Source: an uncultured delta proteobacterium (GTDB lineage Bacteria > Desulfobacterota > Desulfobacteria > Desulfobacterales > Desulfatirhabdiaceae). Taken from it: a stretch of 64,000 nt of DNA. Below the pieces are notes generated by a model, which saw only the letters and a list, made by a program, of their open reading frames with translations, did not search any database and was not told the origin of the DNA. Numbering within the stretch: the stretch's first letter is position 1; the number at the start of each line of letters is the position of its first letter. The stretch lies in the NCBI GenBank assembly GCA_963789395.1, contig CAWBKP010000010.1, positions 7,351-71,350 of the forward strand, written 5' to 3'. Made by a program: the position numbers and the translations under genes. Shown piece after piece: positions 5,154-31,675 of the stretch.

Positions 5154-5333
5154 CTACTTACCGATCACTTTCTTGACCTGTCCGACTTTTTCCTGAATTT
5201 TTCCGTCCAGATTTTCGATTTTGCCTTCGGCTTCCAATTCGCGATTCCCGACAACTTTCCCAACGGTCTCCTTGATCTTGCCTTCAGCCTGGTGCATTTT
5301 GCCTTCTACATTGTCTTTTGTGCTTGGTTTCAT
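5154..5333 (-). CDS. CsbD family stress-response protein
   Basis: Below the ORF-track size cutoff. Hand translation gives MKPSTKDNVEGKMHQAEGKIKETVGKVVGNRELEAEGKIENLDGKIQEKVGQVKKVIGK* (59 aa), with the typical CsbD G-K-x-K-E / EGK repeats. Confidence 0.75.
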   Translation of the reverse strand: MKPSTKDNVEGKMHQAEGKIKETVGKVVGNRELEAEGKIENLDGKIQEKVGQVKKVIGK

Positions 5334-5366: not shown

Positions 5367-5516
5367 TTAGATTCTGCCCAATAAGAGCAGGATCAAAAGA
5401 ATAACCACAATCAGCCCGACCACGCCTCCGGGTGCATACCCCCAGGATCGGCTATGCGGCCAGACAGGGATTACCCCCACAAGTACCAGTATCAGAATTA
5501 TAAGTAAGATTGACAT
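5367..5516 (-). CDS. DUF3309 family small membrane protein
   Basis: Hand translation gives MSILLIILILVLVGVIPVWPHSRSWGYAPGGVVGLIVVILLILLLLGRI* (49 aa). It has two TM segments and the conserved PxWPxSRxWGY core of DUF3309. Confidence 0.65.
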   Translation of the reverse strand: MSILLIILILVLVGVIPVWPHSRSWGYAPGGVVGLIVVILLILLLLGRI

Positions 5517-5618: not shown

Positions 5619-5846
5619 TCACGGTACGGTCATGTTGTTAACCACCTTCTTTACGCCGTGAACGTCACTCACGAATTTGGTGGCCAAGTCCTTTTCAGCC
5701 GCGTTTTTGGCTTTGCCTGCCAACGTTACCACGCCTTCTTTCGTCTCGACTGTGGAAGAATCAAACAAGGCGCTGACAAACGATCTAAAATTGAAAAGGG
5801 GGTATCCATTTCGCTGGCCTATCCGTACCCGAACATCAGTTAACAA
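5619..5846 (-). CDS. BON domain protein; 5' region interrupted by a MITE
   Basis: The C-terminal part FRSFVSALFDSSTVETKEGVVTLAGKAKNAAEKDLATKFVSDVHGVKKVVNNMTVP is a BON domain. The first roughly 19 codons of the listed ORF (TTG start) are encoded by the inserted element 5797-5955. Removing the element plus one target duplication restores an open frame ...NGIASNFNFRSFVSALFDSS... that runs back to sigma-54 promoter A. Confidence 0.55.
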   Translation of the reverse strand: MLTDVRVRIGQRNGYPLFNFRSFVSALFDSSTVETKEGVVTLAGKAKNAAEKDLATKFVSDVHGVKKVVNNMTVP

Positions 5847-5955
5847 TTTATGCTGACAATTGCTCTATATGGAGGAGGGACTTCATATAAAGTATGTTGT
5901 GAACAATGATAATTTATATTCACACAATAATAGGCCAGCGAAATGGATACCCCCT
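5797..5955. mobile_element. 159-bp MITE-like element with 26-bp perfect terminal inverted repeats and an 8-bp target site duplication
   Basis: The left TIR is AGGGGGTATCCATTTCGCTGGCCTAT (5797-5822). Its exact reverse complement is at 5930-5955. Direct repeats AATTGAAA lie at 5789-5796 and 5956-5963. The internal 107 bp is AT-rich and non-coding. Confidence 0.75.
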
Positions 5956-6025
5956 AATTGAAATTACTGGCAATGCCGTTCAAGACAATATTGATGGAAT
6001 TAAACCGCGCGCTGCTTTTTATAAC

Positions 6026-6041
6026 TGCACTCTTTGTGCCA
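6026..6041 (-). promoter_or_regulatory. sigma-54 (-24/-12) promoter, cassette A
   Basis: The minus strand reads TGGCACAAAGAGTGCA (GG-N10-GC spacing; consensus TGGCAC-N5-TTGCA), preceded by TTGGAAACT as in the other cassettes. It lies upstream of the BON / DUF3309 / CsbD genes. Confidence 0.7.
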
Positions 6042-6141
6042 AGTTTCCAATACGCGTCATCACATCACCCATCATTCTGATATTTATTAATAATTAGTTA
6101 ACAATGCATTTGCAGGGTTGTCATTAACAACCATAATAAAA

Positions 6142-6171
6142 GGTCATATTTAACCTGTGGTCATATATGAC
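6142..6171 (-). promoter_or_regulatory. enhancer-like tandem palindrome (UAS) of cassette A
   Basis: The plus strand reads GGTCATATTTAACC-TGT-GGTCATATATGAC. GTCATATATGAC is a perfect 12-bp palindrome. The site lies 100 nt upstream of the -24 box, and the same element occurs at three other loci. Confidence 0.6.
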
Positions 6172-6324
6172 TTATTTGCGGTTAGAATTCCTATTCTTGA
6201 TTCAACCCCGCTTCGGGCTATGACGGTTTCAAGAAGCAAAGCTATCCTCTCTCAGCGGCCGAAACGAAAAAGGTGGGCGTCGTCTTCGCCTTTCTTGGTT
6301 TCCGGTGGTTCCGGTTTCATGCTA

Positions 6325-15757: not shown

Positions 15758-15859
15758 GGTTTCATTCACGCCGCTTTACATCATACATCATGTTGATTTT
15801 TATGAACAATTAATCCAAAAAGCATTGACAAAGCTGCCACTTGCTGTCTTATATAATAT

Positions 15860-15890
15860 GGTCATATTTAACCAGATGGTCACATATGAC
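15860..15890 (-). promoter_or_regulatory. enhancer-like tandem palindrome (UAS) of cassette B
   Basis: The plus strand reads GGTCATATTTAACC-AGAT-GGTCACATATGAC, 102 nt upstream of the -24 box. Confidence 0.6.
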
Positions 15891-16072
15891 TTTTTTCCGT
15901 CTCTTGCGTGTAGCGTGCTTTTTTACAAAAAAAATCTTTTCAATTGGCTGCCCGATAGAGGGGACAGTTTGAATTTTGCTGTAATATTCTGATTAAATGG
16001 TGTGACAATAAATCTATCAAGGACTATCCTATCGTATTACAGATTGACGAGAAGTACTTTAAAGGGGCTACC

Positions 16073-29322: not shown

Positions 29323-30498
29323 TCAATGCTTTGCTCCTTCGCATTCACAAAAGGGCTCAGTATTAAAAATTTCCTGAAAAATGGTTTTAAATTCGAGCAA
29401 CCGTTTTTTTGCAAATAACTGATGAAGCGTTTTGGCCTGTGTTTCCTCAAAATTCAATTCTCCGAGACGTTTTTCAATATAAATCTGTGTCCTCAGTGTA
29501 ACCTTAACCCCCAATATCGCTTCAATATTCGTTTCAATCTCAGACGCCGATAATTTCCGGCAAATCTTATTCTTTCCCATGGCAGTTGCATCAGTCCCAT
29601 TACTGCAAGGCGTTGCCGCATTTCCTTTAACTGCCGAAATATTTGTTAGACTGTGCGCCTCCGATAGGCGACACAAATATTCAGCCTGATGCGCAGCCAC
29701 TTGGAGATAGGCGCTCAAATTGTAAAAGCCTGCATGGATATGCTCTGGAAATTTTATGCCGCTTCGACTGCTCATATATCGATATTTGTGATCAATCTCG
29801 CTCCACGCCTCTTCGAGAATGGTCCGCAATTGTAACTCGAAGCAAAGGTCCTTCAACACCGGCGGAGCATCCGAATTTTCGCCCAGTTTTATCTTGTAAT
29901 GGATGGAAGAGTATCCGGTGTATCTTGGATCTACGCTATCCGGGATCGATTCGCCGGGATCAACCGGCAGCAGGAAAGACTTCTTTGGATCAGGACCTTC
30001 TACAAAATTCAAAATATTTTCTTCGGACAACAATTTGAGATAGGTCTCAATTTTTTCAATATCCGAAAGACGCAGGCAGATGATCCGGACACCCAATAGA
30101 TCACCGACATTTTCCTGATAATTTTTTTCCGTAATTATCCGTGCACCGGTAGCCATCCCTTCATCCAACATATTGATTTTCTCAATCAGCCTCTGTTCGT
30201 CCTTGATGCGGTATATAACGGTGTGCAGACTTTCTTTTGGCGACGATGGATCGTCCTGGATCAGACGAACGATATATTCAGCAAGTTTTTTATATCTTTC
30301 TTTTTCCTTCAAAAACGAGATGAGGATCGCCTCTTTCTGGTGTTTCTTCAAATACCGATTCTCCTCGATAAATTTGTGTACCGACAGACCGTCACCGCCG
30401 TAATACCGAACAACATGCTTAATGATATGCGCATTTTCTTTTGTTTTTTTGCCTTCACGACAAATACCGTTAGAATCCCAGCGACACTTCCATGCCAT
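29323..30498 (-). CDS. RelA/SpoT-domain protein (small alarmone synthetase / toxSAS-like nucleotidyltransferase) with a C-terminal extension of about 140 aa
   Basis: Synthetase-fold motifs: SLHTVIYRIKDEQRLIEKI, DLLGVRIICLRLSDIEKI, YTGYSSIHYKIKL, CFELQLRTILEEAWSEIDHKYRY. The start is taken at ATG 30496-30498 (MAWKCRW...), because the listed start at 30642 overlaps the upstream gene by 170 nt. The gene is markedly AT-rich compared with its flanks. Confidence 0.7.
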   Translation of the reverse strand: MAWKCRWDSNGICREGKKTKENAHIIKHVVRYYGGDGLSVHKFIEENRYLKKHQKEAILISFLKEKERYKKLAEYIVRLIQDDPSSPKESLHTVIYRIKDEQRLIEKINMLDEGMATGARIITEKNYQENVGDLLGVRIICLRLSDIEKIETYLKLLSEENILNFVEGPDPKKSFLLPVDPGESIPDSVDPRYTGYSSIHYKIKLGENSDAPPVLKDLCFELQLRTILEEAWSEIDHKYRYMSSRSGIKFPEHIHAGFYNLSAYLQVAAHQAEYLCRLSEAHSLTNISAVKGNAATPCSNGTDATAMGKNKICRKLSASEIETNIEAILGVKVTLRTQIYIEKRLGELNFEETQAKTLHQLFAKKRLLEFKTIFQEIFNTEPFCECEGAKH

Positions 30499-31675
30499 AG
30501 TAATCAACCTTATTGTTATAAAACTGGCCATACGGATCATACCCACTGTACCACACTGCCATGAGGCGCAGGCGGCGCTGGCCCGGGTAGGGATGACCAA
30601 ACTCGAGGCCTGCCTTGATGCTGGTATCGACGGACCAGTCATTCTCCTCCGTGCTCTTCATATCCACCCCGGCGATTGGTCTGCCGCTCCAAACAAGCGG
30701 CTTGATACCGCGATACTCGAGCCCCCAGTGGGCGATTGCCGGCTTGAGATCACTCGGTTCCTTGTGGACCAGGTACTCCCCGCCACCGTAAACTCGCCAC
30801 TCTCGCCAATCGCGGGAATAGATGAGCTCAGTGGATTCGTAGCTGAGGTTAACCCGTTCCGGATGATTGGCGCTCAGGAGCAGTTCATCCCCCAGATGCG
30901 AGCTCTGATGATAAAGGCGGACACGGAGCGAATTGTCGCCATACCGGTAGGTAACCGGAATGCCGATGGTGTAGTCCGCATTGATAAGGTCGGAGGAAGC
31001 GGAATCCAGGTTGAATTGGGCGAACAGAGCGCCTTCCAGGCTCAATTGAAGCCCGTCCCCCTCGCGGCTGCCGAAAAACCTGTATATGCCGAATGTCTCC
31101 CCGAAGCCGACGGACGCCATGGTGTATCGGACATCCAGTGAGCTGAAACTAAGGAGGCTGACAAAGAACCGCGGCTGCTTCGGGTCGGCAATGAGCGGCC
31201 AGAACAGATCGCCAACTGGAAAGGTTTCTCCCTGGGCGGTAACCCCCATAAAACTGCCTTCCGCTTCCGGCTTGACGGCGTCTGCAGGCTTTACCACGAT
31301 CGTTACCCCCTTGAGTCCATCGATAGCACGCAACTGCTTGTCGGCCGCCTCCTGCCGAATCGGGTCCTCTTTATACAAGGTAATTGTGGCAACTCCGTTG
31401 ACAATCTTCAACATATAGCTGTCTCTTTCCCAGTTCAGGTCCCGCTCAAGGATGGAGGCAACATAACCGGTCAGAAATTCATCGCCGGACCTGTTTGCGG
31501 CCACTGCGGGGAGAGAGGTGAAAAGGAGCATGAGACAGAGGAAGGCGGCGAAGAGGCGTCCGGTAACATTCACACAGGTGGTGATACGCAGCAGCATGGT
31601 CACGTCATTTTCCTTTTTATTGGCAGAACAGGGGGCGTCAAACGCCAGACCGATGGGTCCGGCATCCTGGCTCAT
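30470..31675 (-). CDS. DUF1207 domain outer-membrane-type protein with an N-terminal BON-like domain
   Basis: Signal-like segment RLFAAFLCLMLLFTSLPAVAA, then a BON-like part (GYVASILERDLNWERDSYMLKIVNGVATITLY ... IDGLKGVTIVVKP), then the DUF1207 core (FPVGDLFWPLIADPKQPRFFVS ... RVRLYHQSSHLGDE). ATG 31675 overlaps the upstream stop (ATGA). An alternative start is at 31597. Confidence 0.65.
   Translation of the reverse strand: MSQDAGPIGLAFDAPCSANKKENDVTMLLRITTCVNVTGRLFAAFLCLMLLFTSLPAVAANRSGDEFLTGYVASILERDLNWERDSYMLKIVNGVATITLYKEDPIRQEAADKQLRAIDGLKGVTIVVKPADAVKPEAEGSFMGVTAQGETFPVGDLFWPLIADPKQPRFFVSLLSFSSLDVRYTMASVGFGETFGIYRFFGSREGDGLQLSLEGALFAQFNLDSASSDLINADYTIGIPVTYRYGDNSLRVRLYHQSSHLGDELLLSANHPERVNLSYESTELIYSRDWREWRVYGGGEYLVHKEPSDLKPAIAHWGLEYRGIKPLVWSGRPIAGVDMKSTEENDWSVDTSIKAGLEFGHPYPGQRRLRLMAVWYSGYDPYGQFYNNKVDYYGMEVSLGF

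Follow-up and report, generated by a model that had tools for sequence, protein, structure and literature searches.

A MITE of the IS1595 family, probably old and vertically inherited, in the sigma-54 leader of an operon with a damaged BON gene

Between a predicted sigma-54 promoter and what is left of a BON-domain gene, the genome of an uncultured deltaproteobacterium of the Desulfatirhabdiaceae carries a short sequence with inverted ends flanked by direct repeats, which raises the question of whether a recent insertion has damaged the gene or whether the insertion and the damage have separate histories. The locus lies in a window of 64,000 nucleotides (assembly GCA_963789395.1, contig CAWBKP010000010.1, positions 7,351 to 71,350), and coordinates given here without a contig or locus name refer to that window. 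An earlier sequence-only reading of the window had taken the insertion to be recent, and to have either inactivated the BON gene or re-started it from a TTG inside the element. Based on the comparisons with related loci described below, we consider it probable that the element is instead an old, vertically inherited MITE of the IS1595 family in a sigma-54 leader, and that the BON gene was damaged by a separate deletion.

The anatomy of the element is clear. It is 159 bp long (5797–5955), is non-autonomous, has its sense strand on the minus strand according to the family alignment and the operon, and is bounded by perfect 26-bp terminal inverted repeats: the arm at 5797–5822 (AGGGGGTATCCATTTCGCTGGCCTAT), which is the 3' arm in operon sense, is complementary in all 26 nt to the 5' arm at 5930–5955. 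Two copies of the octamer AATTGAAA, at 5789–5796 and 5956–5963, form the target-site duplication. In these respects (length, perfect 26-bp repeats, 8-bp direct repeats) the sequence-only reading is confirmed, and it also correctly recognized a MITE that duplicated 8 bp of its target and that separates a sigma-54 promoter from a BON gene. Inverted repeats of this kind gave 0 matches in shuffled windows, and beyond the 26 bp a weaker complementarity of the arms extends to 49 nt at 78%. The longest ORF inside the element is 33 aa, a transposase gene is absent from it, and no transposase with matching ends is present in the window, as had been stated before. The 26-mer has no second match in the window and none in the whole assembly at up to 3 mismatches; the assembly consists of 25 contigs and is 94% complete, and repeats may be under-assembled in it, which bears on the apparent single copy of the element.

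The operon around the element is read on the minus strand. Its putative promoter, a -24/-12 box at 6026–6041 (TGGCACAAAGAGTGCA), has GG at -24 and GC at -12 with canonical spacing, and a scan for such boxes gave 2 matches in the window vs 0.11 expected. The orthologous leaders of L063, L062, L086 and G012 retain the box, those of L063 and L062 in identical form. It belongs to a promoter and enhancer cassette (~6017–6180, with palindromes at 6138–6176) that occurs in many copies in this genome and in the genus. Transcription would start near 6015, which would place the MITE at about +61. The part of the leader upstream of the MITE (5964–6015) aligns with L063, L062, L086 and G012, and the part downstream of it (5756–5788) is untranslated in relatives, where it precedes the RBS and ATG of the BON gene (G010, L062, L063). 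There follow the BON gene remnant (5619–5755), which comprises the last 45 codons and the stop, an intact DUF3309 gene (5367–5516; PF11752, E-value 4.7e-21) and an intact CsbD-like gene (5154–5333; PF05532), the latter two also identified by synteny. In G002, the sigma-54 cassette of the syntenic locus is followed by the gene of a 263-aa protein (signal peptide, three BON domains) and then by DUF3309 and CsbD. The orthologs in relatives, with 260–263 aa, a signal peptide and three BON domains, resemble OsmY-type periplasmic BON proteins, and the source annotations of the BON homologues of relatives name them OsmY; however, with 97.7 bits these proteins fall short of the 174-bit cut-off of the NCBIfam OsmY equivalog, and the genome studied here retains only the last 45 BON codons.

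That the element is a genuine MITE of the IS1595 family is supported by its relatives at other loci. A 161-bp copy that is 85% identical lies at an unrelated locus in a genome of the same genus (G001), and at least seven short elements with nearly identical ends occur in G020, a genome of the same family; the four of them that are readable in full are each flanked by an AT-rich 8-bp duplication without mismatch. When one genome per species was scanned, the core of the repeat was located at 17 loci in other genomes, belonging to Desulfobacterales, Desulfatiglandales and a MAG labelled Candidatus Brocadia. The repeat ends bound non-coding elements of 78–340 bp and three elements of 1040–1045 bp, and the 8-bp duplications are mostly perfect (at 11 of the 15 paired elements listed); across the repeat family, the duplications are merely AT-rich and a shared consensus is absent. 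Elements of ~160 bp form a subfamily at three distinct sites across genomes (the window site, the G001 site and a further one, site 3), and the wider repeat family is found at more than 10 sites with different duplications. Across the order, 13 of 401 genomes have the repeat at up to 2 mismatches, and such a patchy distribution is as expected for a mobile family. In the count of terminal repeat copies that had been proposed as a check of the MITE, the repeat family occurs at many loci elsewhere, and a single copy was found in the genome itself.

The three elements of 1040–1045 bp are IS copies, each encoding a single protein of 325–328 aa that combines a zinc ribbon at the N-terminus (PF12760) with a DDE domain (PF12762, E-values of about 1e-33 to 2e-33), and these proteins reach 198–208 bits with the NCBIfam model NF033547 "IS1595 family transposase" (cut-off 75). 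Duplications of 8 bp, a zinc finger and a DDE domain are features of the IS1595 family (PMC8101967). One end of the full-length IS in L039 is identical to the window repeat in 25 of 25 nt, and the IS ends in L033 and L040 in 24 of 25 nt; a full-length IS with matching ends, for which a search had been suggested earlier, exists in other genomes. Similarity to every IS copy is limited to ~25 terminal nt, and the internal 107 nt come from no IS that we found. Since the similarity is confined to the ends, the interior is not that of a deleted IS, and an IS-derived interior is not required of MITEs in general. As to the subgroup of IS1595 to which the element belongs, we considered ISSod11-like ends, which we take to have the form nnnGcnTATC.

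The Brocadia-labelled MAG contains elements of 202–203 bp in several copies with perfect 8-bp duplications (L029, L030, L041), and an intact full IS with matching ends (L040:6171-7212). Either the family is active in a different phylum, or the copies are there through an error of binning.

Within the genome studied here, the sole IS1595-type element in the assembly is one of ~1006 bp on contig C13 (~29817–30822; L045:1353-2358), and the assembly has no further PF12762 match. The imperfect 35-nt terminal repeats of this element share a 20-nt core with the MITE repeat (right end), and a frameshift within the zinc ribbon divides its transposase into ORFs of 71 and 293 aa. Because the only IS1595 transposase gene is frameshifted, the MITE is probably immobile in this genome now.

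The age of the insertion can be judged from copies at the same site, which were found via an exact 29-mer from the element core and look-ups of the BON protein. Four other lineages share the insertion, with site, orientation and duplication in agreement; in one of them the element is a remnant. In L063 (AMWB02069410.1; also L079 and L080), it is 160 bp long and accompanied by an intact 260-aa BON gene, with U32, methyltransferase and type III PKS genes upstream as in the window (an exact-protein look-up of the PKS gene gave no record). In L062 (Ga0268283_1000040; also L081 and L082), it is 162 bp long and the BON (260 aa), DUF3309 and CsbD genes are intact, and in L086 (ERZ25039459), an element of 150 bp, one arm of which lacks 12 nt, stands beside an intact 261-aa BON gene. 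In these three lineages, the MITE lies 93 nt upstream of the intact BON start codon. G012 retains a 12-nt remnant (AGGGGGTCTCCA) between both duplication copies, which fits a 147-bp microhomology deletion. The duplication flanking the element is unchanged in L063 and L086, and mutated in L062 and G012.

At four-fold sites, the window and L063 differ by 17% in the PKS gene, and L063 and L062 by 20% in the BON gene. Because the insertion is common to lineages that are 17–20% apart at such sites, the alignments support an old insertion, one that would predate substantial divergence, and the claim that it looks recent does not hold. When L086 is included, the four orthologs have 12.6% variable columns in the MITE vs 17.3% in the adjacent leader (p = 0.41), and this similar level of variation fits co-inheritance of the two. 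An empty site at the locus, the comparison that had been recommended, was observed in none of 30 relatives, neither in genome contigs nor in metagenome contigs, and every orthologous leader found has the element or its remnant; the insertion here is therefore deduced from the duplication and from the behavior of the family. For the G001 copy, no homologous locus that could provide an empty site was found in 22 relatives, and the uninterrupted motifs seen, for site 3, are paralogous only. The sequence-only reading had itself named two observations that would speak against it, namely that an empty site is never seen and that the repeat is conserved in orthologous leaders; both have now been made and dispose of the recent date, whereas the identity of the element as a MITE survives independently.

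Several other BON loci bear a relation to this leader. The BON genes of L083–L085 and L087–L089 are ~93% identical to the L063 protein and have the same sigma-54 cassette with a different, shorter leader without the MITE; they co-occur with MITE-bearing loci in samples 3300003154 and GCA_000315315.2. In G010, the leader homology of a BON paralogue (C554 ~15815–15915; L058:760-860) begins exactly at the octamer TTTCAATT, with unrelated sequence further upstream and the sigma-54 cassette absent, and this may be a rearrangement with its breakpoint at a former MITE boundary. In G012 (C14; L048:930-1500), the BON gene downstream of the MITE remnant is broken across several frames, which represents either a decaying copy or assembly errors.

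If the element is old, the state of the BON gene requires an explanation of its own. The argument that linked the two was that precise excision restores a continuous frame, and excising 5797–5963 does give an open minus-strand frame (...NGIASNFNFRSFVSALFDSSTVETKEGVV...). What this frame joins to the BON domain, however, is UTR and promoter box, and the joining is due to a deletion. The stretch NFRSFVSALFDSS is 5' UTR in G010, L062 and L063, where 50 nt separate it from the real ATG and where the ~50 nt that follow it hold the RBS and the ATG. In the window, the homology to the leader ends, and that to the third BON domain begins, at a CCA microhomology at 5753–5755 on the minus strand, and 698 bp are missing compared with L062. 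This deletion of about 698 bp took the RBS, the start codon and ~216 BON codons; residues 215–259 of 260 are the only BON match left anywhere in the assembly, and the Pfam BON profile matches the remnant at its positions 24–67 only. The frame reaches the BON domain only because the deletion fused the leader to the last 45 codons. In the other direction, it runs back through the -24/-12 box, and its transcribed part lacks ATG and GTG codons as well as a Shine-Dalgarno sequence. The restored frame is a coincidence of the later deletion and is non-coding. Evidence for the BON deletion comes from a single assembly; the gene layout of the window recurs in a JGI contig, but this may come from the same sample.

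Neither of the two effects ascribed to the element is borne out by the same-site copies. Inactivation of the BON gene by the element is contradicted by the intact BON genes of 260–261 aa alongside it in L062, L063 and L086. As for a re-start, an ORF of 75 aa does begin at a TTG within the element and extend into the BON domain, but the corresponding ORF in L062 has 48 aa and ends at the BON ATG, and it is absent from L063. With no Shine-Dalgarno sequence and no conservation, the 75-aa ORF was rejected as a gene.

An antisense ORF of 58–64 aa, which starts inside the MITE and crosses the sigma-54 box (5906–6097 on the plus strand; L062:3634-3828 and L063:3621-3797, both on the minus strand), was also considered; it is open in the window, L062 and L063. 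About 10 of 63 residues differ between the window and L062, as for neutral change, and the frame is not open in copies at other loci; judged by these alignments, it is probably not a gene. Near its position, a 63-aa minus-strand gene is called in the JGI contig.

The perfection of the repeats might still be taken as a sign of youth, but the same-site copies suggest otherwise. At repeat position 8 (window 5948), the window has A and all other same-site copies have C. In the paired arms, this position is a C opposite U, i.e., a mismatch, in L063, G001 and L060/L064, an A-U pair in the window and L061, and a C-G pair in L062 and L086. On these alignments, the most parsimonious history would be that an ancestral mismatch was repaired three times in two different ways, and the perfect 26-bp repeat of the window is most simply read as a derived state. 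Templated correction of quasi-palindromes during replication would repair such mismatches without selection.

Two accounts of the locus that dispense with an old, shared insertion can be weighed against these observations. The model of a recent insertion that inactivated the BON gene, or caused it to be re-started from the TTG, draws on the perfect repeats and duplication and on the 75-aa ORF, but it would have to accommodate an insertion common to lineages that have diverged by 17–20% at four-fold sites, a BON gene that is intact after the element in three of them (L062, L063 and L086), a frame that crosses untranslated leader and promoter box and offers no ATG, GTG or Shine-Dalgarno sequence within its transcribed part, and a TTG ORF that shrinks to 48 aa in L062 and is lost in L063. 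We regard this model as extremely improbable. Alternatively, each lineage might have received its own insertion at a hotspot, or the filled allele might have spread recently by recombination, as might be suspected from the MITE of three orthologs being less diverged than four-fold sites and the promoter cassette. Yet a family whose duplications are AT-rich and without consensus is very unlikely to have inserted several times at one and the same base and in one orientation. Further, the duplication itself has mutated in L062 and G012, the deletions in individual lineages nest as they would by descent, with L086 and G012 sharing the C-G state of L062, and the divergence of the MITE is not different from that of the adjacent leader once L086 is included. 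Independent insertion or recent spread is therefore very improbable, and inheritance from a common ancestor remains our preferred reading of the shared site.

A different question is whether the old element has been put to use by its host. On the operon strand, it is predicted to fold into a hairpin with a closing stem of 26–27 bp (-87.8 kcal/mol for 251 nt, z-score -8.4), and the genome encodes an RNase III homologue. A Correia-like RNase III substrate would be expected to present a perfect RNA duplex of at least ~22 bp within a transcript, and an intrinsic terminator a G+C-rich stem and a short loop ahead of a U-tract. Past the stem, the operon strand reads CCCCCU and then UUUCAAUUUU. A scan of the element for promoter and terminator consensus found none on the operon strand, the lack of a terminator call being due to the loop of 107 nt; -35/-10 pairs in the element were checked by eye as candidates and were poor. 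The only Rfam match, to a microRNA precursor (31.5 bits vs a threshold of 71, E-value 0.2), was rejected. A core of ~55 nt (5845–5900) is almost invariant in seven copies from three loci, with two single changes, and is itself predicted to form a hairpin with CCCUCCUCC in its loop, which on the operon strand is C-rich and anti-Shine-Dalgarno-like; since most copies were found with a 29-mer from this core, its conservation is partly built in. At all three sites (L065:2676-2836; L060:9913-10073; window 5797–5955), the MITE lies between co-directional genes and has the same orientation, three insertion sites being too few for a test of orientation. The G001 copy is located 36 nt upstream of the start codon of an acyl-CoA dehydrogenase. 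About 140 nt upstream of the site-3 copy (L060:9745-9885) are a multi-copy module in G010 and G002, which may be another repeated promoter or leader cassette.

These features could be explained if the element had been domesticated as a structured 5'-leader module that tunes the sigma-54 stress operon, acting as an RNase III site, an attenuator or through its C-rich loop. Several observations point in this direction: several lineages whose BON gene is intact keep the element at this site, one repeat mismatch was apparently repaired three times in two ways, the core with its CCCUCCUCC loop is almost invariant, and the orientation matches the flanking genes at all three sites. In addition, the MITE has 6.4% variable columns vs 21.6% in non-coding flanks among the window, L063 and L062 (p = 7e-4), and at an independent site it differs by 6.0% vs 14.5% in the intergenic flanks (p = 0.005). 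However, most of these copies were located by an exact match to the core 29-mer, which biases the comparison, and the addition of L086, which was found by its BON protein, removes the effect (12.6% vs 17.3%); an excess conservation of the MITE, which looked significant with three orthologs, was therefore rejected as not robust. L086 has lost 12 nt of one arm and G012 147 bp, and the BON gene of L086 is intact without the full stem. The RNAalifold consensus contains no pair changed on both sides, there is neither an Rfam family nor a promoter or terminator call on the operon strand, and templated quasi-palindrome correction accounts for the repairs without selection. On these grounds, we rate domestication as unlikely. 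Its wider form likewise seems unlikely to us: here, an IS1595-type MITE of low copy number would have become, by domestication, a portable structured leader that serves RNA processing or attenuation in the sigma-54 stress operons of Desulfobacterota.

Comparison with known systems places the element among familiar types. With IS1595-family IS, it shares the 25/25-nt repeat and the 8-bp duplication, but these IS carry a zinc ribbon and DDE transposase, whereas the element has only 159 bp, no transposase and an unrelated interior. Correia repeat-enclosed elements of Neisseria are non-coding, ~100–160 bp long and bounded by 26-bp terminal inverted repeats; they often lie between promoters and genes, are co-transcribed and form long hairpins that RNase III can cut. 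Their target duplication is TA, they are present in hundreds of copies, and parts of promoters can be contained in them. The element described here is like them in its size range, its 26-bp repeats, its position between promoter and gene and its predicted long hairpin, but it duplicates 8 bp, is single-copy per genome as far as seen, and has no detected promoter. ERIC/IRU and other MITE-like intergenic repeats of enterobacteria are transcribed imperfect palindromes in leaders and intergenic regions, with effects on mRNA stability that depend on orientation. No cognate transposase is known for them, whereas a cognate IS family has been identified for the element, which also belongs to a different sequence family. 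It is a genuine but ordinary MITE of the IS1595 type.

Taken together, we propose the following history for the locus. An IS1595-type transposase, acting in trans, would have recognized the ~25-nt terminal repeats, as the anatomy of the element suggests, and placed the element in an AT-rich target (TTTCAATT in operon sense), with duplication of 8 bp. The target would have been the 5' leader of a sigma-54-driven stress operon for a BON (OsmY-like) protein, DUF3309 and CsbD, at a site ~61 nt after the predicted start of transcription and 93 nt before the BON start codon. The insertion presumably dates from an ancestor shared by at least five lineages and was vertically inherited from there; the element can coexist with an intact BON gene, and in some lineages deletions are slowly eroding it. 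In the genome studied here, a single mismatch between the repeats was probably corrected, which made them perfect, and a microhomology-mediated deletion of ~698 bp would have removed the rest of the leader, the RBS, the start codon and ~216 codons, leaving a remnant of 45 BON codons that happens to be in frame with the untranslated sequence now joined to it. Should the sigma-54 promoter be active, its transcript would contain the element ahead of DUF3309 and CsbD, folded into a long hairpin with a perfect stem of 26 bp, and the element may then serve as an RNase III site or a partial barrier to transcription.

For the organism, the OsmY-like protein appears to be lost, with DUF3309 and CsbD kept behind a very long leader. 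In annotation, the 75-aa "BON" ORF should become a gene remnant and the 159-bp element an IS1595-family MITE, and the locus illustrates that perfect terminal repeats together with a perfect duplication are no proof of a recent insertion. If the reading as a portable leader were true, hosts would keep the element in sense orientation, actively maintain its stem and hold its C-rich loop near invariant. The repeat family AGGGG[C/G]TATCCATTTCGCTGGCC, with its autonomous partners, is now defined and can be used for annotating Desulfobacterales, Desulfatiglandales and Brocadia-labelled MAGs.
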